Source of the DNA: Bdellovibrionia bacterium
GTDB lineage: Bacteria > Bdellovibrionota > UBA1018
Reading direction: 5' to 3'
Assembly (NCBI GenBank): GCA_045805065.1
Contig: JBJMMA010000090.1
Span: 1 to 53,807, forward strand
Length of the DNA stretch: 53,807 bases
The translations under genes and the position numbers were made by a program. Positions 3,737-29,471 of this stretch are shown here, piece after piece (positions within the stretch are counted from its first letter, which is position 1; every line of letters starts with the position of its first letter). Under the pieces are notes generated by a model. That model had not been told where the DNA came from and searched no databases. It saw only the letters and a program-made list of their open reading frames with translations.

Positions 3737-4983
<1,247 letters not shown>

Positions 4984-4999
<16 letters not shown>

Positions 5000-6549
5000 G
5001 AACTCGCAATACTCTTTTCGCCGTGACTCTGACGTTGCTGGTTCCCATCACGTCAAAGGCTACGTTGTACAATCTCGGCGCTTTCTGGAAGCAACCCAGC
5101 GCAGGAAGCGGAGACAGTCTTGCCTTCACGTCATCCGCATTCAGCGGATTGACCACCTGGACCTGCGTAGGACCTGTCACGGTTCAATCTCAGACGGGTG
5201 GCGCTCCAAAAACGGTATCATCCAACACGACGGTCAATCTGACCGGCATTTCTGGAATGCATTTCTTTTCAGATTCAGGCTGCACTCAGGAAGTGACTTC
5301 TGCAACCATCCCGTCAGGCAGTTCATCTGCATCTTTTTACTTTTTGTCTGGGAAAAAGAGTTCTTTAGCGACTCTGAGCGCTGCAGCTTCAAATTATACG
5401 ACCGCCACTCAAAATCAGACTGTTACTGCTTACCTGGGATGCACCTGGCTGGGTGGAACCGCTGGCAACGCGACAACCTGGGAAACTTCCACGAATTGGT
5501 CCTGCGGTCATATGCCTACTTCTGCGGCCGGAGATATTGCGGTCTTTGATGCCAATTGTGGAAGTAATTGCACGCCTACAGTGCCCGCCAGTTCCCAGGA
5601 CTTATACGGACTCTATCTGACGAGAGATTACACAGGAACTGTGCAACAAGGAGCTAACGCACTTATTGTTGAGGTAGATGGAGGCTTCCGGATTGACGGT
5701 GGTACTTTCGTTCAATCGACTCAGAACATTGTTGATAAGGGGGTTTTCACGCAAACCGGTGGTACCTTTCAGGGCGGTTCAGGTTCCATTTCCCTTACGG
5801 GCGACGTGAGCGTCTCTGGCGGCTCCCTGACATTGACTTCCGGTCTTACCTTCGTAAATGGCACCTGGTCTGTCACTGGATCTGCCACCCTCAACGCGAA
5901 TGGCGGCAATCTCTATTTGCAGCCTAACAGTATAGCCGACATCGCCATCAATCCGGGAGCGGTTCACTACAATAATGTGAGTGTGTATCCTTCGCAAACG
6001 ATCGCTATCGATTTCGGTGGGGCGACATTTTACGTGGATGGAGATCTCGCCTTTGGCAATATATCCAATGTCGTGCTTGTCATGAGCAAAACAAAATCCA
6101 GCTCCCCGAGCGTCATGGGCGGGGGTTTCGGTGGTCCGATGAGCGGGGGAGGCATCCAAGTCAGCTCAGTCGCTCTGAATAATGTAACCTTCTCGGTGGG
6201 TGGTAACGTAGCATCAACTGACGGTGGGGCGATCGGATCCGCTCAATTCATTTTCAGAGGCGCAAGCCCGACTCTTAGCATCGATAATGGAAGTGTCGCC
6301 TTCCCAAGCGGTAATGTTATCGTGAGCGTTTCAGGAACTTTGGGATTGCTTGGAAATACCTACCTGGATGCTAATTTGCAAAGTGTGACCGTTACGAGCG
6401 GCGCTATCAATATGAACAATCATGATTTTACTATCGGTAAAGCATTAACCCTGTCTCCCGGTACGTCTGTGACCCGAGGAACTGGAACGTTGACTGTGAG
6501 CGGCGCCACGCTTGGTGCTGGCGCCTACAGCGGCGGGACGATTTACTAA
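4984..6549 (+). CDS. secreted Gly/Ser/Thr-rich beta-strand-repeat (adhesin/beta-helix-like) protein
   Basis: ATG 4984 overlaps the fibre gene end; signal peptide then LGAFWK; W.G...WETSTNWS and [12 protein letters not shown] repeats. Confidence 0.7.
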
Positions 6550-7889: not shown

Positions 7890-9014
7890 TTGATGTATCA
7901 GGCAAAGCATTCCCGAATAGCGCTCTTGGCCCTGTTGCTGGCAGGGGCCTCTGGTCCTGTTTCTACATGCCTTGCGGACGCAAACGTGCGCGATCCATCC
8001 GTTAAATATCTTCAAATCCTATCTCATCCGGAAATGGCCTGGGGGGCTCGTCGCTCCAAGAAAAAGCAGGACAAGGATCCTGAACTTCCGGCAAGCGATG
8101 ATCGAATCCGTAAGGAACTCGAGAATCTTCTCAAGACTTATGCGCCCCTCGTGTGGCTGCACTCCCAGGAGCCTTATCCGCCGAGTGATCCTCTGGAATT
8201 CATCGAGCATAGCTCGCTCCATTACCGTGGTCCCTCGGGTCGTGATCAAATCCTTTCGCCTGCAGGAAGGATTGAAGCAGAAGCGCTCGCTCAATTATCA
8301 AAGTCAGGTGCGGTCACCCGGCCTTACCAGTCGGGATTTGCACTCAATGGCTCAGGCTACTTTCTTAAGCTTGAGGATGTTCGCCCGGCTACGAGAGCGG
8401 TTGCGGCGCTTGAGCATGTTCCTATGTTCTGGCGCTTAGGAGAGGGTGAGTTTGCAAAGACTTTGATGCAAGAGGGGGCTCGACTCGGAAAGAAGCGAAT
8501 CGTGATCGAGTACTGGTATCATACGCCGTACAATCTGGCGACTCGTGTTGGGATAGGAAACCATCAGGGCGATTGGGAAGGTGTTGCGATGCTCATTGAG
8601 CTCGAAGACTCCCGCGGCACGCTTGAACATCGGCTTTTGGCGAGCTTCTATGCCGAGCACGAAACAGGGACCTGGCGTTGCGCGGGAGAGCTCAGTCGAG
8701 CCAGCGACGGCTCCCATATTGAAGCCTTCTCTGCGATCGGAACTCATGCGACTTATCCGGAGCCCGGCTCGCATCGAAGCGCTGTGTTTACGGATAAAAC
8801 CGAAAGAGGAACGCCTTGGCAGAGCTGGGAAAATCTCAGACCGCTGGCGCTTGAGCCTTATTATGGCTATTCGGGCGCGTGGGGTGAGCCCAGGTTCTTC
8901 TCGTTCATGACGGGACCTCTGGTCCCTGGTCCAGGCTACAAGTCTTTGCCCCGGGAAACGAGCGCAAGTGAAAGTCTCAAAACTTTGACTTTGCTCTTGT
9001 CCAGATGTCACTAG
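7890..9014 (+). CDS. secreted Vps62-related (DUF946-like) protein
   Basis: YAPLVWLHSQEPYPP, IEYWYHTPYN, GNHQGDWE, GTHATYP and YSGAWG motifs; N-terminal hydrophobic stretch. Confidence 0.65.
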   Translation: MMYQAKHSRIALLALLLAGASGPVSTCLADANVRDPSVKYLQILSHPEMAWGARRSKKKQDKDPELPASDDRIRKELENLLKTYAPLVWLHSQEPYPPSDPLEFIEHSSLHYRGPSGRDQILSPAGRIEAEALAQLSKSGAVTRPYQSGFALNGSGYFLKLEDVRPATRAVAALEHVPMFWRLGEGEFAKTLMQEGARLGKKRIVIEYWYHTPYNLATRVGIGNHQGDWEGVAMLIELEDSRGTLEHRLLASFYAEHETGTWRCAGELSRASDGSHIEAFSAIGTHATYPEPGSHRSAVFTDKTERGTPWQSWENLRPLALEPYYGYSGAWGEPRFFSFMTGPLVPGPGYKSLPRETSASESLKTLTLLLSRCH

Positions 9015-9835
9015 GTTCCAAAGCGAGGAGGCGTTCTCGGAGATGGGCGAACGCTTCTTACCTGCGCCAGCGTGAGGGAAATTAAACGCTCTTCACGCTC
9101 TTGAATCGATCGGCGGATAAAACGCAGCCGGGCAATCGCTGAAAAGTTTCCAATCACGGCAATGATGGCGAGCGTGATCATCATGGGAAAAGGAAGTGGA
9201 GAGTTAGAGTGGCTGAGCGGAGTCAAGGTGAAGCCTAAAAGAAGGTAAGTCAATCTTTCGGTTCGCTGCATGCTGCCCCGAGGTAAACGCACTTCAGCGA
9301 TTTCAGAAAGTGCCGTGGTATAGCTCACCATAAAAGAGGCAAGAAGCGCCGCACAAACCACGGCCTGAACCCAAGGAAAGGGATGGTAAAAAATGATCAG
9401 CCCCGCAAAGAGAAAGAACTCGACGTAGCGATCCAGAGCGGAATCCAGGACTTTTCCTGCGTAATTCATCGTGCCTGTCGCACGTGCGACCATTCCATCC
9501 AAGGCGTCCATGGCTCCGCCTGCTAAACCCACTGCTGCGGCGATTCCAAAATGTCCCTGTGTCAATAACAGTCCGCAAAGCGCGCCTAAAAACACGGCAG
9601 TATAAGAAATCGCATTGGCGCTGATGTTCAAGTGAATGGCGAGACGTGAAAGCGGCTGAATGGCCCAGTATCCCATTTCCATAATGGACTTCGCTAACAG
9701 AGGGCTACCGCCTTGCCGCTCGATTCGTTCGTAATACGTTCGGCCTTTGATTCGTACTCGCAATAAATAAAGCGCCATGAGGAGTACGGTGCTGAGGAGG
9801 AGGACCTTGGATACGAGGATGTCCGTGTTTCTCAT
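9011..9835 (-). CDS. CDP-alcohol phosphatidyltransferase family protein
   Basis: DALDGMVARATG...GKVLDSALDRYVE signature. Confidence 0.9.
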   Translation of the reverse strand: MRNTDILVSKVLLLSTVLLMALYLLRVRIKGRTYYERIERQGGSPLLAKSIMEMGYWAIQPLSRLAIHLNISANAISYTAVFLGALCGLLLTQGHFGIAAAVGLAGGAMDALDGMVARATGTMNYAGKVLDSALDRYVEFFLFAGLIIFYHPFPWVQAVVCAALLASFMVSYTTALSEIAEVRLPRGSMQRTERLTYLLLGFTLTPLSHSNSPLPFPMMITLAIIAVIGNFSAIARLRFIRRSIQEREERLISLTLAQVRSVRPSPRTPPRFGT

Positions 9836-9948: not shown

Positions 9949-10224
9949 ATGTTTTTCACAGATATTGTGGTCGTGCTGGCCATTGTGCTGTTCATTGCTG
10001 CTGTGGCGATCGAATTGAGAAAAGACCGCGACAAGAAAATGTACGTCGGAGGTGAGGCGAAAACTCACCGCGACGAGAGCTCCGCACCCGTTCAGGGAGA
10101 AAGTCCTGTATCAGCACAAGGCGATAGTCATGTGCCAGTCGTTCGCCCAGATGCAGCGCCGCCAGTTGTCACCCAGGAAGAATTTAAAACGCCAGAGTTT
10201 AAGACGCCTAAGAAATCAGCTTAA
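9949..10224 (+). CDS. small membrane-anchored hypothetical protein
   Basis: One N-terminal TM helix and a low-complexity tail; fills the gap between two real genes. Confidence 0.55.
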   Translation: MFFTDIVVVLAIVLFIAAVAIELRKDRDKKMYVGGEAKTHRDESSAPVQGESPVSAQGDSHVPVVRPDAAPPVVTQEEFKTPEFKTPKKSA

Positions 10225-11507
10225 GATTTGAACGCTAACAGGTGGTACGTTTTCTTGCCCTTGCGTAGAACGATGTATCCACCGGCAATCAAGTCTTTTT
10301 GCGTAATCATGACCGCGGGGTCAGTGATACGCTCGTTATTGATATAGATACCGCCAGCGGTCACATCTTTGCGAGCAGCTCCCTTGGACTGGCAAAGGCC
10401 CGATTCCACTAAAAGATCAATGAGAGGGGCGCCGGCTTCAGGGAGCTGTTTCTGAGTCGATGGAGCGCCCTTCATGACGTCTAAGAGAGTTCTCTCATCG
10501 AGATCCTTGATGGCGCTCCCAAAGAGAGCTTGAGTGGCAGCTTCCGCGCGCTTGAGTTCCGCGTCGCCATGAACGAGGCGGGTCATTTCGCGCGCCAGCG
10601 TCTGCTGAGCTTCACGCTTTTCTGGAGCGGTGCGAGTCTGCTCTTCCAGGCGAGCGATCTCATCCAGGCTCAGGAAGGTGAAGTACTTCAAGTACGTAAT
10701 CACGTCAGCGTCAGCTGTCTGAATGAAGAATTGGTAGAACTCGTAAGGCGAGGTGCGGGATGGATCGAGCCAAACGGTTCCTGATTCGGATTTACCAAAC
10801 TTGGTTCCATCGGCTTTTGTGACCAGTGGATGGGTTAAGCCAAAAGCTTCAATGTTTTCTTCGCCACGCGCTGCGCGCATACGGCGGATGAGGTCGGTTC
10901 CTGCCGTGATATTGCCCCATTGGTCGGATCCACCGATTTGAAGCCTGCAGCCCTCTTTTTCGCTCAAGACGTAAAAGTCATAAGCCTGAAGAAGCATGTA
11001 GGAGAATTCCGTGTAGGAAATTCCGTGTTCACGATCTTCCAGACGTGCGCGAACCGACTCCTTGGCGACCATGTGGTTGACGGTGAAGTGCTTTCCGATA
11101 TCGCGCAGAAAATCGATAAAGCTCAGATTTTTGAACCAATCGCCGTTATTCGCAAGCGTTGCGGAGTTCTGACCTGTGAAGTCCAGGAATTTTGAAATGA
11201 CGTTTCGAATGCCAGCAACGTTTTTCTGAATGGTCTCTTCGGTGAGCAGGTTTCGCTCTTGGCTTTTTCCGCTCGGGTCTCCGATCATTCCAGTAGCGCC
11301 GCCTACGACTGCAATGACTTTGTGTCCGGCTTTTTGAAAGCGACGAAGTGTCATCAGGGGGAGAAGACTTCCGACGTGAAGACTGTCGGAAGTAGGATCA
11401 AAGCCGCAATAGAGTGTCATTGGACCCTGCTCAAGTGCTTTGGACAAAGCGGGGTCGGTGACTTGCTTGACGATTCCACGGGCTTCTAGCTCGGCAAAGA
11501 GTTGCAT
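10221..11507 (-). CDS. tyrS: tyrosine--tRNA ligase
   Basis: YCGFDPT.DSLHVG, QIGGSDQWGNI, KFGKS, C-terminal S4-like domain (LRKGKK). Confidence 0.98.
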   Translation of the reverse strand: MQLFAELEARGIVKQVTDPALSKALEQGPMTLYCGFDPTSDSLHVGSLLPLMTLRRFQKAGHKVIAVVGGATGMIGDPSGKSQERNLLTEETIQKNVAGIRNVISKFLDFTGQNSATLANNGDWFKNLSFIDFLRDIGKHFTVNHMVAKESVRARLEDREHGISYTEFSYMLLQAYDFYVLSEKEGCRLQIGGSDQWGNITAGTDLIRRMRAARGEENIEAFGLTHPLVTKADGTKFGKSESGTVWLDPSRTSPYEFYQFFIQTADADVITYLKYFTFLSLDEIARLEEQTRTAPEKREAQQTLAREMTRLVHGDAELKRAEAATQALFGSAIKDLDERTLLDVMKGAPSTQKQLPEAGAPLIDLLVESGLCQSKGAARKDVTAGGIYINNERITDPAVMITQKDLIAGGYIVLRKGKKTYHLLAFKS

Positions 11508-11558: not shown

Positions 11559-12959
11559 TTACTGAATAAGTTTCAAGTCTGGCCAGCTCTCGCCCGTCTG
11601 GGCCTGATGGCGATCGCGAATCACATGATAGGCCTCGCCATAATCGCCCTGCAGTGAGCCTTGATTGACGTGGATATAGCCCACGAAATGAGCCGAAATC
11701 AAAAGCTGGGCAAACCAAAGAAGAAAGAGGGCTATTCTTCCTGCCTGGCGATTGGGATTATGCGAGAGCGCAAGTCTGACCAGCCAGATTTGCTCAAAGG
11801 GAAAGGAGACACGCATATAATAGCGCCTGATATTGACTCGTGTCGCGGTCAGCAAAATTCCATATCCCCAAAGGGCCGCCTTTTGTGCAAAAGCAGTCTG
11901 AGAGACTTTGCGGGCAAATAGCCATTGAACCCGCGCTTCACGGGCAAAGAGCTGCCTTCCCCGGCGAAAAAGACCCGAGAAAATAATCCAGCATCCGGAA
12001 ACAAGAGCCAGGGCGTGGGCGATTCCACAGAGGTACGTGGCAGTACCGCCGATCACGGGGTAGCGCACGAAATCGGATATCTGAGCCCAAACGGAGCCAC
12101 CTCGCATCAGTCCCAGCGGATTTCCAAGATGCAGGCCCAGGCTATCCGTTACCCAGAAAACCCAGAACTTGAACTGCAGGACGTCACCCCAGGTGCCTGA
12201 GAGTACCTGACCTGGAGGCGGGTTCTTAAGGACATGGAGGTACCAGGGAATCAGTGGCCAGGCACCCGCACAGGATCCGATGAACCACCAGAGCCAGCGA
12301 ACTCTGACTTTTGGAATCGCTTTCTGATCGAAGAGCGCAGTCCAGAGAAAGAGCGCTCCTTCTAAAAAGAAGCCACTCATATGAATCTGGCCCAGCATGG
12401 CTCCCACGCAGCCCCAAAGAAAGGCGCCCCAGGCCCGGTCACGCTTCCACCAACCTGCGATCATGAGTGTTGAGAAAAAAGGAAAAAAACCCTGAGGCCA
12501 GAGCTTACGATCAATGTAGACGCCAAACGGATTGACCATCGCAAACGCACAAGCCCAAAGCCAGGATTCTCGGTTATCACTTTGAGGAGAGGTGCCGCGC
12601 TTCACGAAATAGAGCGCAAAGGGAATCAAAAGCGCGATCCCAAGCCAGGCAAAAAAAGAGAGCGCTCTTTGAAGGGCAATCGGGTCGGTTGCACGCGCAA
12701 GCCTTGCAAGGCACACAAATACCCAGACACTCATTCCGGGATTGGCGAGGTAGACGCCGGAGTTCATGCCGGCCCAGGGCCACGGCCTGCTATGTCCGAT
12801 GAGCTGGGTTTGGACGAAGTCGTAATATTCGTCTTCTTTCCATTCCATATCCTCTGTGTAGATGAGGCGAAGGATCAGGCCAGAGAGTAGCGTAATGGCA
12901 AGAAAGAGCTTCCAGCGAGCGCTCAGGGATTCTTTGCGCCAGGGTTTGTGTAGGTTCAC
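11559..12959 (-). CDS. multi-pass GT-C glycosyltransferase (ArnT/PMT-like)
   Basis: LRL..(loop)..EDE acidic motif after TM1, NPG, many TM helices, QIHMSG; GTG start overlaps the upstream stop. Confidence 0.65.
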   Translation of the reverse strand: MNLHKPWRKESLSARWKLFLAITLLSGLILRLIYTEDMEWKEDEYYDFVQTQLIGHSRPWPWAGMNSGVYLANPGMSVWVFVCLARLARATDPIALQRALSFFAWLGIALLIPFALYFVKRGTSPQSDNRESWLWACAFAMVNPFGVYIDRKLWPQGFFPFFSTLMIAGWWKRDRAWGAFLWGCVGAMLGQIHMSGFFLEGALFLWTALFDQKAIPKVRVRWLWWFIGSCAGAWPLIPWYLHVLKNPPPGQVLSGTWGDVLQFKFWVFWVTDSLGLHLGNPLGLMRGGSVWAQISDFVRYPVIGGTATYLCGIAHALALVSGCWIIFSGLFRRGRQLFAREARVQWLFARKVSQTAFAQKAALWGYGILLTATRVNIRRYYMRVSFPFEQIWLVRLALSHNPNRQAGRIALFLLWFAQLLISAHFVGYIHVNQGSLQGDYGEAYHVIRDRHQAQTGESWPDLKLIQ

Positions 12960-15793
12960 AGGTGAGCTCCGTCAGAAGGCCTGAGCATTCTAAGAACACG
13001 GTATTCGAGGACTCGGCCGTCGGTGTAGGGATCAGGAATGGAAAGACGAGTGAGATCGTTGCTTCGCGCCGGGTGGACGATGATCTCAGAGTCTGGATTC
13101 TTCATGAGTGCTGCGCGAAGCTTTCCAGGGTCTAAAAAATGAGCATTTTGCGGGTAAAAGCAAGGAAGCGATCGAAAGCCAAGTGACTTGAGCCGGCTTG
13201 CTGCCCAAAGAGACAGGATGTTGAGAACCGCTTTTGGCGTGAGCCAGAGCGATGGATCATAAGGGCAGCGAATACAAGAGATGCCTTCAGCTTTGATCAG
13301 ATCGGAAACCGAATCAATCAATCCTGGAGAAAGGTGAATGTGATGGTGTCCGTCCAGATAATGAATCGGGATCTGAAGGGATTTGAGTTTTGCAATCTGA
13401 GCTTTAAACTCGGCTCGAGCATGCTCACGCAGAGCTTTTTTGTCAGAAAGAGGGCTCATCCATTGGAGAAGGACTTGCCCAGGAGAGCAAATTCCATAGG
13501 TCAGATCAAAGTGCAGGCCGAGCTCTACTCCGGGCACTTGAAGAAGTTCATTCAAGCCATGAGTGATATGAGCTGAGCGCGCCATGATCGAGACTCTTCG
13601 GATGACACCGGCGCGAGCGAGTTCAAGGATCCCTTGATTGACTTCGGGCGTTAGTCCCCAGTCATCTGCGGTAAACGCTTGAGTGAGTTTCAGTGGCTCA
13701 TAAAAACCTGCGCGGTAACGCTTGGCAAGCTTTGGCAGACCCCAGAGAATGCTGAGCGCTTCAAAGCCCATTCTTCGACGGCTCTTTTCTTCAGCCAAAA
13801 TCAAAGTAACAGGCAGGTCTTTTTCTTTGTGCGAATGAGACTTTGCAATCAGCGCAAGCTCAAGATCAAAGAGAAATCCAAGAGAACTCTGGAGCGTGAA
13901 CGCTTGCAAGGCAAGCGAGCGATTCATGGCAAGCGTTCCAGAATGCGTATCGGTGGTTTCAATGGGCAGGAGCATGCGCACTAACTTATTAAACCGCAGC
14001 CCCAGGCGATGGCGCTGATACACGATGGGAAGCAGCCTGACAGGAATTCTAAACCGGGATTCAGGGTGACGACGATTTCCTCTGACAAAAGAATAGCCTG
14101 AGGAAATCTCAGAGAGAGCGTTTTGATAAAACTTAGGATCACAGGGCTGTTCCAGCTGTGCTGTCAGGATGACTCTGCCACGAGAAAGTGCAAAGGATTC
14201 CCTGAGAGCCGCATTTCTTGTAGGAAAGTGCTCCGCGGGGTTTCTTAAGTTCAAGAGCTTGATTTGTGGTGACGCGCTTTCAAGTTTCTTCAATTCGATC
14301 CAGGCGGGATTGTGCTCACTTAAGCGATCACCATAAGGCTGGATCAGGATTTCATATTCTCGCGAGACCTGATCAAAAACCTGGCGCGCTTCTTTGATGA
14401 AGCTCACGACGGCTTCGGCATCCAGTGAGGTTGCCGATTGCATGGGAATGGGCGCAAGAAGCGAGAAATCAAGACCGGCTTTCTGTTGCTCCTGTTCCCA
14501 CGGAAGAACTTGACGGCTTCGAGCCAGCGATTTCAGCTCGCGGGCAAACCACGAGGGCCGCGAGTGGCGATAAGCAAGCTGCGCGGTCGCAAATCCCAGA
14601 AAAAAAGTCGCAAGAAGGGGAATGGATGCTTTTTGTGATCCAAAGAAGAGAAAGTCACCTGTGAGGTCTTTCCCGGCAAGGGACAGGGTCAGTGCTCCAA
14701 AAATCAAAGCGAAGAGCGCAAAGCGGTTTCTCTTCCGAGAAGGAGTCTGGATCTGATCAGACACCAGCAGCGCGACCGGGATCGCAAGGACAGTCAGCGA
14801 ATACTTGAAAGTCTCAGGCATCACCCAAAGGTAGGGAAAAATGCCAAGCGCGAAAAAGGACGCGCGTCCCATGGATCTGCGTGGAAAGCGAAGAAGCCAA
14901 AATAAAAGGACCGAACCGCAGATGAAGATAGCAAGTGCTGCGTAAATTTCCATGGCAAGCGCGGGCGTGAGCCAGTGCCAGTTGACCATTCTCAAGAGCG
15001 CGCTTTTGATCGACTGGCTCCCATAGTGAGAAGCATCATAGTACTGGGAGTCCGCGGTCACCATCAGGGCCCACCGGCTCCAAAGCATCTTAACGCGATC
15101 CCATGGGCCAATCCAGAACGTGGTCAGCGCAAGGGTCACGAGAAGAGTCACAAGCGGCGCGACGATCGCACGAAGCTTGGCCTTGGGACGACCATGCAAA
15201 AAGAGTGGATAGAGAAAGCCCGGTCCGATTTTCACTAAGGTGGGGATCAGAAGAGCAGTCGATGCCTTGCCGCTTTGCCAGGAGACCCAATAATAAAAGC
15301 TTGCGCAGAACGACAGAAAAAGAAGGCTTGAGATCTGCCCGATCGTAAAACAATCCAGACAAAAACGAACAATGAAGAGCAGCGCTACTGCTGTTGGAAA
15401 TGCCGCCAGAGAGCGCGGTCTGCTCACTCTTTGGAGCGTCAGAAAGATGAAACCCATGCCCAGACCAAACCAAAGATACTGAAGAAAATACCAGACGAGT
15501 TTTGCCGATGCTAAAGAGAGCTCAGCAAATGGCCTGAAGAAAGGGATTGTCGGCGGGGCGTAGCGAAAAGGGGATGCACCATCTTTGAGGGAATAGACTT
15601 CTTCCCAATTCCCTTGAGCCGCTCTGAGTGCGGAGCGGTAATAAACTTCAAAATCCGTGTAGTCCGTCTTGATCCATACTTTATAGGCATAAAGAGGCAG
15701 GACGATTGCAGCGGCAATCCATGCGAGCGCGATGACGGCTTTTTGAAGTTTAGGCTTAGGCGTTTTTTCTGCAAACATAGAGGATATCGGCAA
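12956..15793 (-). CDS. triple fusion: GT87-like GT-C + degenerate GT2 + YdjC/ChbG-family deacetylase
   Basis: N: DFEVYY, FRYAPP, GQIS, VKIGP and many TMs. Middle: paralogue of the adjacent GT2 with DAD replaced by QLE. C: TADDWG, GLHFDLT, LDGHHHIH, IIVHP. One uninterrupted 945-aa frame. Confidence 0.8.
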   Translation of the reverse strand: MPISSMFAEKTPKPKLQKAVIALAWIAAAIVLPLYAYKVWIKTDYTDFEVYYRSALRAAQGNWEEVYSLKDGASPFRYAPPTIPFFRPFAELSLASAKLVWYFLQYLWFGLGMGFIFLTLQRVSRPRSLAAFPTAVALLFIVRFCLDCFTIGQISSLLFLSFCASFYYWVSWQSGKASTALLIPTLVKIGPGFLYPLFLHGRPKAKLRAIVAPLVTLLVTLALTTFWIGPWDRVKMLWSRWALMVTADSQYYDASHYGSQSIKSALLRMVNWHWLTPALAMEIYAALAIFICGSVLLFWLLRFPRRSMGRASFFALGIFPYLWVMPETFKYSLTVLAIPVALLVSDQIQTPSRKRNRFALFALIFGALTLSLAGKDLTGDFLFFGSQKASIPLLATFFLGFATAQLAYRHSRPSWFARELKSLARSRQVLPWEQEQQKAGLDFSLLAPIPMQSATSLDAEAVVSFIKEARQVFDQVSREYEILIQPYGDRLSEHNPAWIELKKLESASPQIKLLNLRNPAEHFPTRNAALRESFALSRGRVILTAQLEQPCDPKFYQNALSEISSGYSFVRGNRRHPESRFRIPVRLLPIVYQRHRLGLRFNKLVRMLLPIETTDTHSGTLAMNRSLALQAFTLQSSLGFLFDLELALIAKSHSHKEKDLPVTLILAEEKSRRRMGFEALSILWGLPKLAKRYRAGFYEPLKLTQAFTADDWGLTPEVNQGILELARAGVIRRVSIMARSAHITHGLNELLQVPGVELGLHFDLTYGICSPGQVLLQWMSPLSDKKALREHARAEFKAQIAKLKSLQIPIHYLDGHHHIHLSPGLIDSVSDLIKAEGISCIRCPYDPSLWLTPKAVLNILSLWAASRLKSLGFRSLPCFYPQNAHFLDPGKLRAALMKNPDSEIIVHPARSNDLTRLSIPDPYTDGRVLEYRVLRMLRPSDGAHL

Positions 15794-16421
15794 AAAGCTT
15801 GCTGCTGCAGCGCTCAGATGTCACCTGAAATCCAACCGACTCAAGCGCCTGAATCCAGCCTGACGGAGCTCTGAAGTGGAGGCCTGGTTTTTCGGCCCGG
15901 GTAAAACCAGTCATAGTTGCGACTTTTTCGTAAAAACGATTGAACCAGGAGGCAAGCCCTCCGCCTGCTGGATCGACTTCTCGGACAATCAGGCATCCCT
16001 GAGGATCTAAAGCATCAAAAGCCTGTCGGAAGATCTTTTCCTGAAGCTTGGGCTCAAAGTAATGCATGACATCGATCATAGCGATGCCTTGGTAATGGCC
16101 GGGAGGTGGATCCAGGACGTTACCTTTTTGAAATTTCAAATTCGGAATTCCTTGAGACGCGGTGTTGGCGGCCTCAACTCGTGCGGCATCATGATCAATG
16201 CCATGAACTTGCCGGTCGGAGCTCTCCAGCGCTAAGGCAAGAGCCAGGAGGCCATGACCACAACCCAGATCAAGGATCTTGCCCTGACGAGGTAGATGTC
16301 GAGCCATCGCAAGATAAGGCGTCAGTTTCCAGCGCAGAGTGAGAAACGCGCGAGTTCCCAATGAAATGCCTTGGTAACGGGACAGGTAGCCAACAAAGCT
16401 GGGTGCATGAGCAGTATTCAC
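15756..16421 (-). CDS. class I SAM-dependent methyltransferase
   Basis: ILDLGCGHG, GIDHD, IDVMHY. Confidence 0.9.
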   Translation of the reverse strand: MNTAHAPSFVGYLSRYQGISLGTRAFLTLRWKLTPYLAMARHLPRQGKILDLGCGHGLLALALALESSDRQVHGIDHDAARVEAANTASQGIPNLKFQKGNVLDPPPGHYQGIAMIDVMHYFEPKLQEKIFRQAFDALDPQGCLIVREVDPAGGGLASWFNRFYEKVATMTGFTRAEKPGLHFRAPSGWIQALESVGFQVTSERCSSKLFADILYVCRKNA

Positions 16422-17221
16422 TGAGCGTAAACTCCCTTGAGTTGACGAATGAAAATTCGGGATAGCCAGTAGGCGGCAAGAAAAGACTCGCGGATGATCC
16501 GGACCGTGCTTTTCTCGGTATTTAGAAAAAGAAGAACGGGAAGATCCGTTTGCTTCATTTTCTTTGCGCGGGCTGTGAGAAAAATCTCAAGATCGAAAAA
16601 GAAACCGGGACACTCCAGTCGGGAGAACGCTTCACGCGCAAGCTCTCGAGACATCGCTTTGATGCCCGCTTGAGTGTCAGTAGTCTCGACGGGGAAAAAC
16701 AGGCGCACGACCCGGTTAAAACCAAGGCCCAGTCGATGACGTCCATAAGCCACATTCAAAAGTTCGACCGGGATGTCAAACTGGCTCGATGCCATTCGGC
16801 GATTTCCTGTGACCAGGTGATAACCTTCCTGAAGCTTTGCGTGAGCTCTTGAGAAAAACTCCAAATCATAGGGAAGGTCGGCGTCCGTAAAAAAGATCAT
16901 CCGCCCGCGCGCCCGCTGAATCCCTGTTCTGAGAGCCGCGCCTTTGCCTGGGGCGCCTTCATGAAGGACGACTTTGACTTCAGAAAAGCGCGCGCTCAAC
17001 TTGTTTGCGATTTCCGTGCTGAGATCGTTTTTGTCGTTTCCGGGATTAGGGATCAGGATGATCTCGTAAGAGTCAGAAAAATTCTTTCCAAAGAACTCTC
17101 TCGCCTCAAGCACCGTGCTTTCCAGCGCGTGGGCTGAGTTTTTGGCGGGAATGAGGAGCGTCACCTCAAGTGAGGAAGCATCCGCCAAAATATGCGGCAG
17201 AGGAGAGAGCCTTTGAGGCAT
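16418..17221 (-). CDS. GT2 glycosyltransferase, polyprenyl-phosphate sugar synthase-like (DPM1/ArnC group)
   Basis: LLIPAKN, GKGAALRTG, FTDADLPYD, GNR, DTQAGIK, FFFDLEI. Confidence 0.88.
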   Translation of the reverse strand: MPQRLSPLPHILADASSLEVTLLIPAKNSAHALESTVLEAREFFGKNFSDSYEIILIPNPGNDKNDLSTEIANKLSARFSEVKVVLHEGAPGKGAALRTGIQRARGRMIFFTDADLPYDLEFFSRAHAKLQEGYHLVTGNRRMASSQFDIPVELLNVAYGRHRLGLGFNRVVRLFFPVETTDTQAGIKAMSRELAREAFSRLECPGFFFDLEIFLTARAKKMKQTDLPVLLFLNTEKSTVRIIRESFLAAYWLSRIFIRQLKGVYAQ

Positions 17222-18285
17222 CAGCGATTCCTCTTGAATGATGTTTCACAGAAATCGCGAAACTCAAGAAGGAGCTCAAGGACAAGATCCGCGTCTGCTA
17301 CCGTGTGTAGCGCAAGGCCGCAGGCCGGCGTATAGATCGCCTGAGTCAGGATTCTCCTGACGAGCTCAGAGTTTGCCCCGGAAGATTGAAATGCGTTCAA
17401 AAGTTCAGAGAAAATCGGTTCTGGCTCAAGCGATTGAAGAACGGAAGAGCGAGCCGTTGGAATCACTCCCAAAGAAAGTCGACCTCCTGAAAGAACAAAG
17501 TCCTCAATGGCAGGCAGTCTGGATGGCGTCAGAAGTGCTCTGAGAGAGAGTGCGGTATCGAGTGATAAAACCTGGATTCCCAGACCAAGAACCGCGTCCC
17601 AATCCGTATTGCTGCAGCAATGAAGCCCGACTTCGACTCCATCTTTCTTCAGGGTCTGAATCATGAGCTTCAGCTCCTGGAGTCCTAAGTGGAACTTGGT
17701 GCTTGAGGCCATCAGCCCAAAAAGACCGGGCTCATCGATATACAGAAGTGGCTGGATTCCCGAAGCCTGAAGCCGCCTGCTCATGGCAAGCGCTCGCGCA
17801 AGAACCAGGCGGTAGATCTGCATCGCGACTTCCGGATTGCGATCCAGCGTATGCCCCTCTTTTGTTTTTACTGACCATTGAGAGGTCAAAGGGCCTGCGA
17901 TCTGGATCTTGGCCTTCTTGACTCCTCTTTCTTCAAGCTCCCAGACAAACGGTTGCCAGCTTGAGGAAATGGCAGTGGAGGGCTCAAAGGCTTCAAATGC
18001 GGCAAGATCTGAATCCGCACGCTCAAAAGCGCGGGTCAGCTCTTGATCGAGCTTCGCGCTTCGGCTCTCCCATACGGCGACGTTCAGTGTAACGGTTCCA
18101 TCGCTTTCAGCCTGAAGACCTGGAAGTCCTTCCAGAGCCTGCGCAAGCATGTATTCCCAAGGATTGCGGATAGGAGTCTGAGGCAAAAACGGGATGCTGG
18201 TGCTGAAAGCAAATTGAAGAGCCGAATCCACATTGTGATGCGGAAGACTCCCGATGCCCGTTGTTTGAAACTCAGCGTTGATCAT
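17221..18285 (-). CDS. stand-alone 'core' methionine synthase-like protein (MetE C-terminal domain homologue)
   Basis: TTGIGSLPH, K.QIAGPLT, IDEP, Zn-ligand HCC and TPACGL; no MetE N-terminal half; GGAGG precedes ATG 18285. Confidence 0.75.
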   Translation of the reverse strand: MINAEFQTTGIGSLPHHNVDSALQFAFSTSIPFLPQTPIRNPWEYMLAQALEGLPGLQAESDGTVTLNVAVWESRSAKLDQELTRAFERADSDLAAFEAFEPSTAISSSWQPFVWELEERGVKKAKIQIAGPLTSQWSVKTKEGHTLDRNPEVAMQIYRLVLARALAMSRRLQASGIQPLLYIDEPGLFGLMASSTKFHLGLQELKLMIQTLKKDGVEVGLHCCSNTDWDAVLGLGIQVLSLDTALSLRALLTPSRLPAIEDFVLSGGRLSLGVIPTARSSVLQSLEPEPIFSELLNAFQSSGANSELVRRILTQAIYTPACGLALHTVADADLVLELLLEFRDFCETSFKRNR

Positions 18286-21200
18286 CTTCAAGTCCTCCGC
18301 GGCCTACGGAGAAGTAAGTCGCTTGCGGATGATGGAAGACAAGGGCCGAAACGCTGGACTCTGGATCCATCATGAAGCCATCCGTGAGTTGCACGCCGAT
18401 TTGCTGAGGCTCAAGAAGCTTCCAAAGAAGGGCTTGATCATCCAGTCTTGGGCACGCAGGGTATCCAAAGGAGTAGCGCTTGCCGCGATACTTGGCTTGA
18501 AAGCGTTCCATCATGGTCATTTCAGGAGCATCAGGATGGCCCCACATTTTGCGAAGCTGCGAATGCAGAAGTTCCGCATAAGCTTCGGCGCTTTCAAGCG
18601 CAAGGGCTTGCACGATGTGAGACTTGAGATAGTCCCCGCGGTTTTTCAGATTTTCTGCAAGTTCTCGCACTCCCTTGCCAACTGAGACGACAAAGAGCGC
18701 GACCGTGTCTTGCGGCATGCTGCCCAGAGTGTTGTTTTGAAGCGGATTGGTATAGTCGGCCAGGCAAAGGCCATCCATCTTGCGCTGGCGCGGGAACTCA
18801 AAGCTCGTGAGTTTTTCACCCTGGCCAGAGAATAGATGTAGATGATTGCCTTCGCTTCCCGCGCGGAAGAACTGATAGACGGCAGAAGGCGCAAGAATCG
18901 GCGTATCCTTGTAAGCTTCTTTCACTTCCTGTACGGCTTGCCAGATTCCCAGGGCTTTCGGATCCTTCTCCTCAAGCTCAGCCAGCGTCTTTTGATCCTT
19001 ATCGAACATGCGGACGCTTGCGCCTTTGATTCCAAGATGGCGCCCATACAGCATGAGAGGATTGACGTATTTCCAGATCTGCTCAATGGGTGTGTTTTTC
19101 AGAATGTGACGCTCAAAGTCCGGAGGTGTCGGAACCTCTGAAAGTACATCTATTGCTGAGTTTCTCTGCGTGATGATCTCAGCGGCAGTCACAGGAGCTG
19201 CGCTTTGAGTCTGCGCAAGTTTTGCGCGACGCTCAGAGAGATCGCTTTTGAGTTTAGCAAAGCGCGTAGGGTCCACGATCTGCTTGGCAAGCTCAAGCCC
19301 ATTCATCGCGTCCGACGCATAAGCGACTGTGCCCGTGGTGTAGGCTTTTGCGATCTGCTTATCGACAAAGTTTGCAGATAGTGCTGCTCCACCGACCAGA
19401 ACCGGCGTATCAATGCCTGCGCGCGCAAAGTCGTCGGCAGTCACAACCATTTGCTGAGCGGATTTTACCAGAAGACCTGAGAGGCCCACGATATCCGGTT
19501 GATGCTCACGAACTGCCTGGATCAAGGTCTCTGGCAGAACTTTGATACCAAGATTGACGACTTTGAAGCCGTTATTGGAAAGAATGATTTCGACCAGGTT
19601 TTTGCCGATGTCATGAACGTCACCTTTAACAGTGGCAAGCAGAACTTTGCCGCGCGTGGAGCTGTCGGATTTCTCCATGTAAGGCTCAAGATGCGCAACT
19701 GCTGCTTTCATGGCCTCGGCGGACTGCAGAACTTCCGCAACGATCAGTTGATTGGTGTTAAAGAGACGTCCCACTTCGTCCATGCCTTGCATGAGAGGGC
19801 CGTTGATGATCTCAAGAGGTCTCATCGTTTTGAGCGCCTCGTCGAGATCAGCCTGAAGGCCATCTTTTGAGCCCTCAATGATGTAGCGTGGAAGTCTTTC
19901 CATGAGAGGAAGCTGCTCTTGAGAGGACTTCGATTTTCTCGAAGCGCCGGTCATGTTTCTGAAATGCGCCGCAAAAGCGGCCACTGGATCCGCGCCGCGG
20001 TTATAGAGAAGATCTTCCGCAAGCTTCACTTCTTCAGCAGGAATGCTTGCAAAGCGCTCGAGTTTTTCCGAATTCACGATTGCAAGATCAAGTCCTGCCT
20101 GAACGCAGTGATAGAGAAAAACGGAATTGAGAACTTCACGTCCTGCGGGAGGAAGACCAAAGCTGACATTGGAGATCCCAAGAATCGTCTTAGTACGTGG
20201 AAATCGCTCCTTGATGAGTCGGATGCCTTCGATGGTTTCAACGGCCGAACCAATGTACTGCTGATCTCCAGTAGCACATGGGAAGACGAGCGGGTCCCAG
20301 TAGATATCTTCGGGAGCAACACCATACTTCTCCGTGAGAAGGGCGTAGGAGCGCTCAGCGATCTCAAGCTTTCTTGCGCGGGTGACGCCCATTCCTTGCT
20401 CAGGATCGTCATCAATCGTACCGACCACAAGGGCTGCGCCGAATTGTTTTGCAAGAGGGACGACTTTTTCGAAGCGCTCTTCGCCATCTTCAAGATTCAC
20501 GGAATTGATAATGGCTTTGCCTTGCGAATAGGTCAGAGCCATTTCGATGACCTTCTCGTCAGTCGAATCGATCATCAGAGGCGCGCGAACCTTCTTGATC
20601 GCGAACTCAAGGAACCTTCGCATATCCTCAATCTCATCGCGATCCGGATTTGCCAGGCACATATCGATGATCTGCGCGCCGCTCTTGATTTGTGCCCGGG
20701 CAATCTCCGAGGCCTCTTCATATTTTTCATCACAAATCAGGGTCTTGAATTTCTTGCTGCCGATGACGTTCGTGCGTTCGCCCACGATCACAGGGCGCAT
20801 TTCATCGGTGATTTCGAGATAATCGACTCCCGAAAGAAACGAGCGTGAGGTGGTTTGCGGGACACGAGGCTTTCTGCCTGCGACAAGCTCAGAGAGCGAA
20901 TGAATGTGGCCATGGTGCGTGCCGCAGCATCCGCCCACCACATTGATCCAGCCGTTCTCGATGAAACGCTTGAGAACGCCCGAGACCATTTCAGGAGTCT
21001 CCAGATAGCATCCGTTCTCATCCGGAAGTCCAGCGTTCGGAACGCAGGCCACGCGAAAGCGAGAAAGCGCCGCAAGGGATCGGATCGGATCCGTCATGAA
21101 CTCAGGACCAGTCGCGCAATTGAGTCCGATGTAAAGAAGATCAAGATGGGAGAGTGAGGCAAGAAGTGCTTCGATGGATTGACCCGCCAGCATGGTTCCC

Positions 21201-21808
21201 ATGGGTTCAATCGTTCCAGAGACAGCGATCGGTATCTTGTAGCCCGCTTCAGCGAAAAGTTTGTCGATGGCCAGGATCGCGGCTTTGACGTTTCTTGTGT
21301 CCTGGCAAGTCTCAAGAAGAAAGTAATCCACGCCGCCTTCGAGGAGTGCTTTGGCTTGAGCGTAGAAGTTCTCCTGCAAGGATTCGAACGTCACGCCGCC
21401 GGTGACAGATATCGCTTTCGTCGTTGGTCCGATCGAGCCCGCGACAAAGCGTGGCTTGTCGGGAGTGGAATAGCGAGCGGCTGCCTCGCATGCAATCCGC
21501 GCTGCTGCCAGGTTGATCTCATGAGCGCGAGAGCCCAGTCCATACTCGTCCAAAACGAGGGGAGTGCCGCCGAAGGTATTGGTCTCAATGATGTCGCAAC
21601 CGGATTTCAGATATTCCTCATGGATATCTCGCACAACGTCCGGGCGGCTGATCACGAGATACTCGTTACAGCCCTCAAGATCTGCTCCTCCGAAATCCGA
21701 AGCAGTGAGGTTACGGTTTTGAATGGCTGTTCCCATGGCACCATCGAGGACGAGGATGCGTTGATCTAAAGCGCTGATCAGCTGCGCAGTGCGTTGCGTT
21801 TGTTTCAT
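18272..21808 (-). CDS. metH: cobalamin-dependent methionine synthase
   Basis: DGAMGT, GLNCA, GGCCGT, GERTN, GDVHDIGKN, SGLL, RYSFGYPACP; all modules present. Confidence 0.97.
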   Translation of the reverse strand: MKQTQRTAQLISALDQRILVLDGAMGTAIQNRNLTASDFGGADLEGCNEYLVISRPDVVRDIHEEYLKSGCDIIETNTFGGTPLVLDEYGLGSRAHEINLAAARIACEAAARYSTPDKPRFVAGSIGPTTKAISVTGGVTFESLQENFYAQAKALLEGGVDYFLLETCQDTRNVKAAILAIDKLFAEAGYKIPIAVSGTIEPMGTMLAGQSIEALLASLSHLDLLYIGLNCATGPEFMTDPIRSLAALSRFRVACVPNAGLPDENGCYLETPEMVSGVLKRFIENGWINVVGGCCGTHHGHIHSLSELVAGRKPRVPQTTSRSFLSGVDYLEITDEMRPVIVGERTNVIGSKKFKTLICDEKYEEASEIARAQIKSGAQIIDMCLANPDRDEIEDMRRFLEFAIKKVRAPLMIDSTDEKVIEMALTYSQGKAIINSVNLEDGEERFEKVVPLAKQFGAALVVGTIDDDPEQGMGVTRARKLEIAERSYALLTEKYGVAPEDIYWDPLVFPCATGDQQYIGSAVETIEGIRLIKERFPRTKTILGISNVSFGLPPAGREVLNSVFLYHCVQAGLDLAIVNSEKLERFASIPAEEVKLAEDLLYNRGADPVAAFAAHFRNMTGASRKSKSSQEQLPLMERLPRYIIEGSKDGLQADLDEALKTMRPLEIINGPLMQGMDEVGRLFNTNQLIVAEVLQSAEAMKAAVAHLEPYMEKSDSSTRGKVLLATVKGDVHDIGKNLVEIILSNNGFKVVNLGIKVLPETLIQAVREHQPDIVGLSGLLVKSAQQMVVTADDFARAGIDTPVLVGGAALSANFVDKQIAKAYTTGTVAYASDAMNGLELAKQIVDPTRFAKLKSDLSERRAKLAQTQSAAPVTAAEIITQRNSAIDVLSEVPTPPDFERHILKNTPIEQIWKYVNPLMLYGRHLGIKGASVRMFDKDQKTLAELEEKDPKALGIWQAVQEVKEAYKDTPILAPSAVYQFFRAGSEGNHLHLFSGQGEKLTSFEFPRQRKMDGLCLADYTNPLQNNTLGSMPQDTVALFVVSVGKGVRELAENLKNRGDYLKSHIVQALALESAEAYAELLHSQLRKMWGHPDAPEMTMMERFQAKYRGKRYSFGYPACPRLDDQALLWKLLEPQQIGVQLTDGFMMDPESSVSALVFHHPQATYFSVGRGGLEDDQR

Positions 21809-21850: not shown

Positions 21851-22306
21851 TCAAACGCGATCTTGATCAGTTCCTGGCGACTGACTGCCGTCTTCGTTTT
21901 CGGGTGGGAGTGCCCCTTTTTTGATCAGATAAACTTGAAGGGCGTAAGCTCCGGCAACAAGTAGGGAGAGCGCGCAGGCTGCCAAAAGCAGATACGCGTA
22001 AAAGCTGTAATGAAGGTTGGGAGGAACCAATGTGGCTGGGAAAAAGCCTCGGGTATCCACAACAATGCAGGACGTGAAAAACGCAAGAAGGGCTGAGCAG
22101 AAGAGTGCGGCGGAAACCCAGAGCCAGTTGTTTCGGATTTGACTGAAAGAGGCTTTTCCTTGCCTGGAATCGCCGGTCAAGAAATCGTCGACATTATCGT
22201 AAGTTTTTCCATCCGAGCTTTCCTGAAGCTCCAGGGCTCGATATTTCTCGCCGAATTTGTCTTTTACAGAGTTGTTTTGTGACGGGTCGTCTCCGTTGGT
22301 AGGCAT
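21851..22306 (-). CDS. hypothetical 2-TM membrane protein
   Basis: 151-aa ORF with two hydrophobic helices, co-oriented with neighbours. Confidence 0.6.
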   Translation of the reverse strand: MPTNGDDPSQNNSVKDKFGEKYRALELQESSDGKTYDNVDDFLTGDSRQGKASFSQIRNNWLWVSAALFCSALLAFFTSCIVVDTRGFFPATLVPPNLHYSFYAYLLLAACALSLLVAGAYALQVYLIKKGALPPENEDGSQSPGTDQDRV

Positions 22307-28709: not shown

Positions 28710-29471
28710 TTAGGCTCTGGGCCGATGGGCTTTTGCGGCAAGTCTCGCGGCCCGAGCTGCGCGTCTGGCCTCGCGAGCGAGTCTTCTTTCCTTTTGGCGA
28801 TGCTTTCTTTGCTCCTTAATGGCTCTAAAGAAATCGACAATATAGGACTTCGCCGACCATAAGCTAATGGCCAATGAGATATAGAGCAGTACCATTCCGA
28901 CAGGGTAAAGAGGGAGTCCCAGAAGCTTGCGGTTTTGATCGCAGGCCATGATGAGAGGAATAGCGACCATCTGGGTGCCGGTTTTCCATTTTCCGCCGCC
29001 AGAGGCATCAATGATGACGCCCTCAGCACTCGCCAAGGCGCGAAGACCTGTAATGGCAAGCTCACGACAAATCAGCAAAATGACAACAACCGGATGAATC
29101 CGGCCAAGTTCCTGAAGCATGATCAGAGCCGAGACGACAAGAAATTTATCGGCCAGCGGATCCAGTAGCTTTCCGTAAACGGTGACCACTTTGCGTGTCC
29201 GGGCAAGATATCCGTCGAAATAGTCCGTGATGCTGGCAACAGTAAAGGCCAGTGCCGCAATCAGATCAGCTGTCGGAGTTTTGATAAACAAAAGCCCCAC
29301 CACGATCGGCACAAAGGCGATGCGGATCATTGTCAGCCAGTTTGGCGTCGTATTGAATGTGAGCTCGTCGTGACCCGTTGGTTCGCCCGATGAATCACCC
29401 GACGGATCACCAGACGAATTGGGTGACGGCGTAGAAGAAGTGTTCAGCTCTGAAGGGGGTTCGACGGCCAT
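28710..29471 (-). CDS. pgsA: CDP-diacylglycerol--glycerol-3-phosphate 3-phosphatidyltransferase
   Basis: PNWLTMIRI, TDYFDGYLAR...GKLLDPLADK, RE..ITGLR, GKWKT..Q; followed by tRNA-Gly. Confidence 0.93.
   Translation of the reverse strand: MAVEPPSELNTSSTPSPNSSGDPSGDSSGEPTGHDELTFNTTPNWLTMIRIAFVPIVVGLLFIKTPTADLIAALAFTVASITDYFDGYLARTRKVVTVYGKLLDPLADKFLVVSALIMLQELGRIHPVVVILLICRELAITGLRALASAEGVIIDASGGGKWKTGTQMVAIPLIMACDQNRKLLGLPLYPVGMVLLYISLAISLWSAKSYIVDFFRAIKEQRKHRQKERRLAREARRAARAARLAAKAHRPRA

Follow-up and report, generated by a model that had tools for sequence, protein, structure and literature searches.

Introduction

The closest described relatives of the six-gene locus analyzed here, which lies on a 53,807-nucleotide stretch of DNA from a Bdellovibrionia bacterium (contig JBJMMA010000090.1 of assembly GCA_045805065.1; this whole stretch is hereafter called the window), build an amino sugar on a lipid carrier. 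The FlmF2/NaxD/FlmK route of Francisella comprises a polyprenyl-phosphate glycosyltransferase of family GT2, a YdjC deacetylase acting on a lipid-linked N-acetylhexosamine (HexNAc) and a transfer step carried out by a GT-C glycosyltransferase, according to the accessible parts of PMC2233673 and PMC11279074; in the latter, NaxD, the YdjC enzyme, is described as deacetylating undecaprenyl-linked GalNAc. LgmA, LgmB and LgmC of Bordetella follow the same three-gene logic and add a free amino sugar to lipid A, with no methylation step reported in the accessible text of PMC4993483. PimE, of family GT87, carries an Asp residue after the first helix. HpnI, HpnK and HpnJ of the hopanoid route combine a GT2 enzyme, a YdjC deacetylase and a radical S-adenosylmethionine (SAM) enzyme on lipid-linked GlcNAc.

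The Bdellovibrionia locus consists of two methionine synthase genes followed by a cassette of four genes, which encode a GT2 enzyme, a SAM-dependent methyltransferase (MT), a GT87/GT2*/YdjC fusion (GT2* being a GT2 duplicate devoid of the DxD motif) and a further GT-C protein. By analogy, the cassette resembles the Flm/NaxD and Lgm systems in its logic, the likeness being drawn from the DxD motif of the GT2 enzyme and from the YdjC domain, and for the last GT-C protein from the fold only. It differs from both in that the MT is fused to or lies beside GT2, YdjC is fused to GT87 and to a dead GT2, and two GT-Cs are present, neither of which scores as a member of the ArnT/PMT family. With respect to PimE, the GT87 domain is fused to predicted cytoplasmic GT2* and YdjC domains, belongs to a Gram-negative lineage and has an amino sugar, not mannose, as its predicted donor. 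With respect to the Hpn proteins, the MT is of class I instead of radical SAM type, GT-Cs are present and the cassette does not co-occur with the cyclase. The new features are the MT partner, the fusion protein and a GT-C family lacking a Pfam model. No pathway combining GT2, YdjC and MT was described in the titles and abstract openings of the open-access literature, which is weak evidence of novelty, since most subscription journals fall outside this scope. We consider it probable that the locus combines a lipid-carrier envelope cassette with an older metH cluster, the two sharing one transcript.

Gene organization of the locus

The six genes occupy the minus strand from position 21808 to position 11559, in the order metH (18272..21808, 1178 aa), the MesB-like gene (17221..18285, 354 aa), the GT2 gene (16418..17221, 267 aa), the MT gene (15756..16421, 221 aa), the fusion gene (12956..15778, 940 aa) and the GT-C gene (11559..12959, 466 aa). 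Each junction overlaps: the ATG of the MesB-like gene, at 18285, lies 14 nt inside metH; the MesB-like and GT2 genes share one nucleotide in a TGATG; GT2 and MT meet in a GTGA (4 nt); the ATG of the fusion gene, at 15778, lies 23 nt inside the MT gene; and the fusion and GT-C genes again meet in a 4-nt GTGA. This bears out the initial annotation of the window, which had listed six overlapping genes at this place. Its labels held for metH, GT2, MT and GT87/GT2*/YdjC, while two were refined, since the protein called core MetE-like is better described as MesB-like and the last one, called ArnT/PMT-like, is a GT-C by fold that has no Pfam family.

As a control, a crude set of open reading frames (ORFs) was taken from the contigs of at least 10 kb of the genome carrying the window (G000, 94% complete). 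Overlapping or abutting genes make up 395 of its 1584 co-directional pairs, and a length of six genes is attained by just 3 of 2294 runs. Because six-gene runs are so rare in this genome, the overlapping arrangement is operon-like. The co-directional run actually exceeds six genes, with tyrS (10221..11507, minus strand) 51 nt downstream and a 151-aa ORF, archease, rtcB and pduO upstream. A scan for promoter-like sites (6 vs. 9.6 expected) and terminator-like sites (29 vs. 21.5 expected, standard deviation 5.2) was uninformative, and no Rfam family reached its gathering score between positions 9000 and 27000, so that no riboswitch was found there.

The four cassette proteins

The GT2 enzyme belongs to PF00535 and is of the polyprenyl-phosphate glycosyltransferase type, GtrB and DPM synthase being its best matches among PDB profiles. 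Its D113-x-D115 motif (DAD) is kept in 93 of 93 aligned rows, which marks it as active-type. It has no transmembrane helix (maximum hydropathy 1.15) and appears to be soluble. The MT is a class I enzyme (PF13649/PF13847), present as a GT2 fusion in most family relatives, and counts phosphoethanolamine N-methyltransferases among its structural neighbours (E 1.5e-11). The wider MT family hints at lipid-linked substrates. In more distant relatives (P0201-P0216) the fusion partners are MMPL and acyltransferase domains (Bacteroidota) or DUF2062 (Myxococcota).

The fusion protein has 107 homologues, the named ones being labelled Oligoflexia, Bdellovibrionota or Bdellovibrionales. Its structural model has a predicted local distance difference test score (pLDDT) of 92.6, and its three domains match the folds of PimE, of GtrB/ArnC/DPMS and of ChbG, respectively. 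The N-terminal membrane domain (residues ~10-410, positions 14549..15751, minus strand) is a PimE-like GT-C of family GT87 (PF09594, 41.1 bits vs. a cut-off of 25), whose top Foldseek match is PimE (9dm5, E 6.7e-7, template modelling (TM) score by target 0.69). Its D42, invariant in 77 of 77 rows, is presumably the equivalent of the catalytic Asp of PimE. From the helices of the model and the positive-inside rule, D42 would face the outside, and GT2* and YdjC the cytoplasm. The C-terminal domain (residues ~700-932, positions 12983..13681, minus strand) is a YdjC/ChbG-type de-N-acetylase (PF04794, 114.6 bits, over the cut-off), and the only YdjC copy in G000. It aligns to ChbG (7vi8) with an E of 2e-20, and its metal and catalytic residues D705, D706, H756, D809, H811, H813, E898 and H902 are invariant in 77 of 77 rows.

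The middle domain, GT2* (residues ~436-693, positions 13700..14473, minus strand), shares 37% identity with the GT2 enzyme encoded next to it. The DAD motif of the latter is aligned to Q-L-E, and DxD occurs in 0 of 77 GT2* rows. Conservation is uneven along the domain: only 5 of 112 columns up to the DxD site are highly conserved, whereas the C-terminal half has 30 such columns out of 146, which is similar to YdjC (53 of 233). Judging from these sequences, GT2* is probably a pseudoenzyme or a lipid-presenting domain. In a quick tree of GT2 and GT2* sequences, GT2* formed a single long-branched clade (15 rows, Shimodaira-Hasegawa-like approximate likelihood ratio test 99), its fork with the family GT2 enzymes being unresolved. 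Structure prediction tentatively points to a complex between GT2* and GT2, with a score of 0.48 vs. 0.01 for the best control. The mark for a complex is passed by 116 of 157 solved pairs and by 2 of 215 mismatches; the passes at 0.60 or lower comprise only 18 solved pairs together with both mismatches. At least 92% of the contacts are common to the runs, and the partner has a pLDDT of 84.

The last gene encodes a protein that gave no Pfam family, no PMT or PMT_2 match at E≤0.1 and no PDB profile match. Its assignment as a GT-C comes from fold comparison, the best matches being ALG12 (Z 20.3, root-mean-square deviation (rmsd) 3.8, 310 aligned) and ArnT (Z 17.8, rmsd 4.2, 353 aligned). The family counts 1543 representatives at E≤0.001, and among 129 rows D43 is invariant and E39, K41 and E44 are near-invariant. 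Fusions to TPR, GH39 or GDSL-like domains occur in some members. G000 contains a paralogue, 40% identical (C64:16818-18077), which precedes a gene labelled tolB-like from its sequence, as well as a second membrane glycosyltransferase-like cluster (C227:8669-12543) with a GT87 gene, an Alg9-like GT22 gene and a 403-aa gene.

Distribution of the cassette

GT2-MT fusions were found in 92 proteins, 6 of which also contain YdjC; outside the family, GT2-MT-YdjC fusions occur in G193, G158 and G222. Other proteins join the remaining pieces: P0008 consists of GT87-GT2*-YdjC-GT-C and P0107 of YdjC-GT-C, while P0200 combines GT87 with a relative of the MT. Because these fusions join all five activities (GT2, MT, YdjC, GT87 and GT-C), the four glycosylation genes, judged by sequence, form one predicted pathway. 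The lipid-carrier pathway of a GT2, a YdjC deacetylase, two GT-Cs and an MT that the initial annotation had put forward is upheld by these fusions and by the gene order, which is conserved across the family. The fusion protein has strong matches (E<1e-45) in 26 of the 36 other genomes of the family and in 0 of 24 genomes from the other families of the order, and a scan of genome contigs with the single fusion protein returned one locus only.

In a phylum sample of 401 genomes, the MT was present in 28 of the 58 other genomes belonging to the family and in five genomes outside it, where the loci are the three GT2-MT-YdjC fusions, a row of YdjC, GT2, MT and PMT_2, and an MT with an unlabelled gene. 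A metagenome scan yielded 400 MT relatives, of which the best 80 were kept; 22 of these scored like the family GT2, GT2*, GT87 or MesB-like profiles and were set aside, leaving 58 distant MT loci. GT2 is present in 42 of them, YdjC in 35 and both in 34 (24 of the 30 loci of at least 5 kb), mostly with the metal and catalytic motifs of YdjC kept, and a convergent GT87 gene was found in 10 of the 11 distant loci tested. The MT of the largest distant group has named close relatives labelled Gemmatimonadaceae or Gemmatimonadota (3 of 120 rows among the matches listed), the genes flanking one locus (L221) are labelled Chloroflexota, and one cluster member is labelled Ca. Udaeobacter. Hence the set of MT, GT2 and YdjC, often with GT87, recurs in other Bdellovibrionota, in Gemmatimonadaceae and on Chloroflexota contigs.

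On Chloroflexota contigs (L218 and L221) GT2, YdjC and MT lie between pnp and the genes for uracil-DNA glycosylase, RNase J and ftsK, so that the trio is again inserted among housekeeping genes; no GT-C occurs in these short loci. Since Chloroflexota are described as a monoderm phylum in the accessible part of PMC10608941, and no GT-C is nearby, the core module seems to make the sugar donor regardless of the acceptor.

Linkage between the cassette and the methionine genes

The family sample comprises G000 to G036, the genomes compared being incomplete assemblies. Part of the cassette is present in 29 of them; G016 and G023, in which the contig ends at the junction, were dropped, leaving 27. 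In 21 of these, metH or the MesB-like gene is directly upstream of a cassette gene (no such link was seen in G002, G006, G007, G018, G026 and G029). The link is real within the family, and the outcome that the initial annotation had named as fatal to its proposal, namely a methionine synthase pair separated from the glycosyltransferase genes in most relatives, was not observed there. The tyrS gene serves as an internal control of synteny: it lies within 3.5 kb downstream of the cassette in 17 of 27 genomes, is unlinked in 7, and no tyrS of this type was found in 3. A penicillin-amidase gene also recurs in the neighbourhood (10 ORF matches including the query); therefore, the whole region has conserved synteny.

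The same gene order also exists where the cassette is lacking. Five other families have tyrS downstream of metH, either behind a MesB-like gene (G040 and G046), directly (G041 and G047) or after 1.2 kb (G039), and in G046 and G047 a metF-type gene comes next. Conversely, G006 (92% complete) and G029 (94%) have a complete cassette and no match to metH or the MesB-like gene; in G029 the GT2 gene lies 232 nt from a divergent pduO, the usual start site of metH. In G007, metH has been relocated together with metF. In G008, G009, G015 and G025, metH stands beside cassette remnants devoid of GT2 and MT, and no MT was found in G008, G015 and G025, which retain metH. Methionine genes were found in 0 of the 58 distant MT loci and in 0 of the five phylum loci outside the family (one of these on a contig of just 8.9 kb). 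SAM is made by MetK, and S-adenosylhomocysteine is cleared by AhcY; in G000 the two genes lie off the contig of the cluster, on C184 and C207, respectively. On all these grounds (metH-tyrS order elsewhere, cassettes without metH, metH without MT, distant loci without methionine genes, and metK and ahcY elsewhere), the adjacency of the methionine genes and the cassette is read as positional, a probably incidental matter of inherited gene order rather than of a shared pathway.

MetH and the MesB-like protein

MetH, the B12-dependent methionine synthase, is intact: it scores 1177 bits with TIGR02082 (cut-off 1011), and all domains are present (five MetH Pfam domains, with the LNC, GGCCG and DVHDIG motifs). 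The MesB-like protein gave no Pfam or NCBIfam match, a phmmer search against the PDB found nothing significant and its profile match to MetE structures is non-significant (E 0.55). The Atlas model of the protein matches core-MetE clusters, that is the C-terminal or archaeal-type MetE, with a TM score of 0.93, and the putative zinc ligands H222, C224, D243 and C322 are invariant in 27 of 27 aligned rows. This His-Cys-Asp-Cys pattern is that of the zinc site of MesB, with which the protein also shares a single catalytic barrel and a conserved Ser and Asp at similar positions, as far as the accessible part of PMC7857596 (Price et al., 2021) describes them.

In G000 we did not find CdhD/AcsD (PF03599), the Wood-Ljungdahl corrinoid protein, whereas the control was positive in 4 of 14 genomes. 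For this reason we call the protein MesB-like and not MesB, and a Wood-Ljungdahl methyl donor for it is unsupported in this genome. A second difference from MesB is the presence of an intact metH, which adjoins the MesB-like gene in 32 of the 33 genomes having it, the exception being one contig end. In genomes from outside the family the MesB-like gene is beside metH in 11 of 11 cases, none with a strong cassette match. The gene thus travels with metH and not with the cassette. The protein may use the cobalamin domain of MetH as a methyl donor, or as an acceptor for a second thiol. This partnership is possibly more interesting than the link between the methionine genes and the cassette.

Other genes of the window

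Upstream of metH, between positions 21851 and 24871, pduO (cobalamin adenosyltransferase, TIGR00636; 24320..24871, minus strand), rtcB, archease and the 151-aa ORF, which codes for a two-helix membrane protein, run co-directionally into metH. Only pduO is loosely conserved there: the 151-aa ORF, the archaeal-style rtcB-archease pair and the CDP-alcohol transferase do not recur beside the operon in the relatives' loci compared. Two CDP-alcohol phosphatidyltransferases are encoded in the window (9011-9835 and 28710-29471), the first of which has its best score, below the cut-off, with phosphatidylinositol-phosphate synthase models. Between metF and tyrS (3737-6549 and 7890-9014) lie the genes for a collagen-repeat protein and a Vps62-domain protein, and a 560-aa ORF that overlaps the end of the former.

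Discussion

On the basis of the established GT2/YdjC/GT-C chemistry of NaxD, FlmF/FlmK and LgmA-C, we infer a mechanism in five steps. At the cytoplasmic face, the DxD-bearing GT2 enzyme would use a nucleotide sugar to charge polyprenyl (undecaprenyl) phosphate with an N-acetylhexosamine; the lipid-linked sugar would then be deacetylated by the YdjC domain and methylated by the MT. GT2* would be an inactive duplicate in which the half contacting lipid and membrane is retained; it probably docks GT2 (or GT2-MT) and presents the lipid-linked sugar to YdjC. A flippase encoded outside the operon would move the lipid-linked sugar across the membrane; two GtrA-family genes are present elsewhere in G000. 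Finally GT87, the most consistent partner of the other activities, would transfer the sugar to a periplasm-facing acceptor, and the second GT-C would serve another acceptor or donor. For the methylation step, N-methylation of the freed amine is the foremost candidate, at somewhat less than an even chance; another chemistry is doubtful, and O-methylation slightly more so. As regards the acceptor, LpxK is present in G000 and therefore lipid A is available; lipid A and another glycolipid or a lipopolysaccharide (LPS) glycan are equally possible, each held tentatively, and a protein is a little less probable than either.

The cassette would have entered an older metH-mesB-tyrS-metF cluster in the ancestor of the family, landing between the MesB-like gene and tyrS; this ancestral order is argued by parsimony without a species tree. 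The cassette would ride on the housekeeping transcript and draw on the general SAM pool, independently of MetH.

A number of observations weigh against this reading. Within the family, metH is kept at the 5' end of the cassette more often than tyrS at its 3' end, and the link was seen in 9 of 9 further informative family genomes, which had been chosen by their MT match. Furthermore, G017 and G184 have lost the MesB-like gene and yet keep metH at the 5' end, and in G138 a divergent metH (L126:3488-7102, 41% identical to the copy in the window) occupies the usual slot before the MesB-like gene and GT2-MT, suggesting a replacement in place. Selection for co-expression may thus play a part. Dependence on a shared promoter explains this retention as well as metabolic coupling does. 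The 58 distant loci, many of which are closely related and short, are not independent samples. The score of the GT2*-GT2 complex could stem from the likeness of these domains to the solved GtrB and ArnC oligomers. As for the MT, it matches only generic methyltransferase structures (best E 1e-12), which do not specify its substrate, and it is absent beside GT2 in G002, G012 and G026. Since its closest relatives outside the cassette have acyltransferase, MMPL or DUF2062 domains as fusion partners, it might methylate the lipid instead of the sugar.

The retention of metH bears on the rival that survives best, which the initial annotation had favoured: methionine synthases and cassette would be functionally coupled, the operon keeping the regeneration of methyl groups in step with the large amount of SAM that envelope methylation would consume. 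The adjacency in 21 of 27 and in 9 of 9 family genomes, its survival after MesB-like loss and metH replacement, and the overlap of the genes all speak for coupling. Nevertheless, we regard it as unlikely, because tyrS, in 17 of 27 genomes, is linked to the cassette almost as often, the metH-tyrS order is older than the cassette and appears without it in five families, G006 and G029 manage without metH, metH persists beside remnants with no MT found in G008, G015 and G025, neither the 58 distant nor the five out-of-family loci carry methionine genes, and metK and ahcY lie outside the cluster.

A second rival takes the doubts about the MT further and sees in the locus a plain lipid A hexosamine pathway of the Lgm or Flm/NaxD type, in which the MT acts elsewhere, on a lipid or on an O-antigen or core sugar. 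The comparison with LgmA, LgmB and LgmC relies on family assignments that we presume to be correct. GT2, YdjC and GT-C do fit the lgmABC and flmF2/naxD/flmK logic, as given in the accessible parts of PMC4993483 and PMC2233673, and both the LpxK of G000 and the genomes in which no MT adjoins GT2 and the fusion gene agree with it. However, 92 proteins combine the MT with GT2, or with both GT2 and YdjC, in one chain, and the association holds in three phyla; neither GT-C scores as PMT or PMT_2, although five other places in G000 do match PMT_2; and the trio is found on contigs of Chloroflexota, a phylum described as monoderm (PMC10608941, accessible part). We therefore hold this explanation to be improbable.

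Tailoring of a hopanoid side chain, in which GT2 and YdjC would take the parts of HpnI and HpnK, respectively, on bacteriohopanetetrol, is rejected as most improbable, since in spite of a squalene-hopene cyclase in G000 and a weak YdjC match to HpnK (57 bits, below the cut-off of 233) the cyclase domain is present in just 3 of the 14 genomes with the full six-domain cassette on one contig and was not found in G004, G006, G010, G014, G029, G033 and G036, all 92-95% complete. Two GT-Cs are not known to be part of the HpnI/HpnK route. In the family at large the cyclase domain is patchy (13 of 36), and the cyclase gene of G000 lies with epimerase, PAP2, carotenoid-type membrane and phosphorylase genes (C63:1147-6315).

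Returning to the lipid-carrier cassette on an older methionine transcript, a fuller version of this reading is doubtful as a whole. In it, the cross-phylum module of GT2, YdjC and MT, usually with GT87, would make an N-methylated and possibly permanently cationic polyprenyl-linked hexosamine that is delivered to the surface. In this Bdellovibrionota family the module would be a membrane-anchored complex organized by a pseudo-glycosyltransferase and feeding two GT-Cs, one of them from a large family without a name.

The locus gives a pathway context for this large GT-C family, for which there is no Pfam model, and exemplifies a duplicated and inactivated GT2 that has been kept as a probable scaffold. 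The known lipid-carrier amino-sugar routes of the Arn, Flm/NaxD and Lgm types end at a free amine. A conserved MT would add a new surface chemistry to them, which would span Bdellovibrionota, Gemmatimonadaceae and Chloroflexota contigs.

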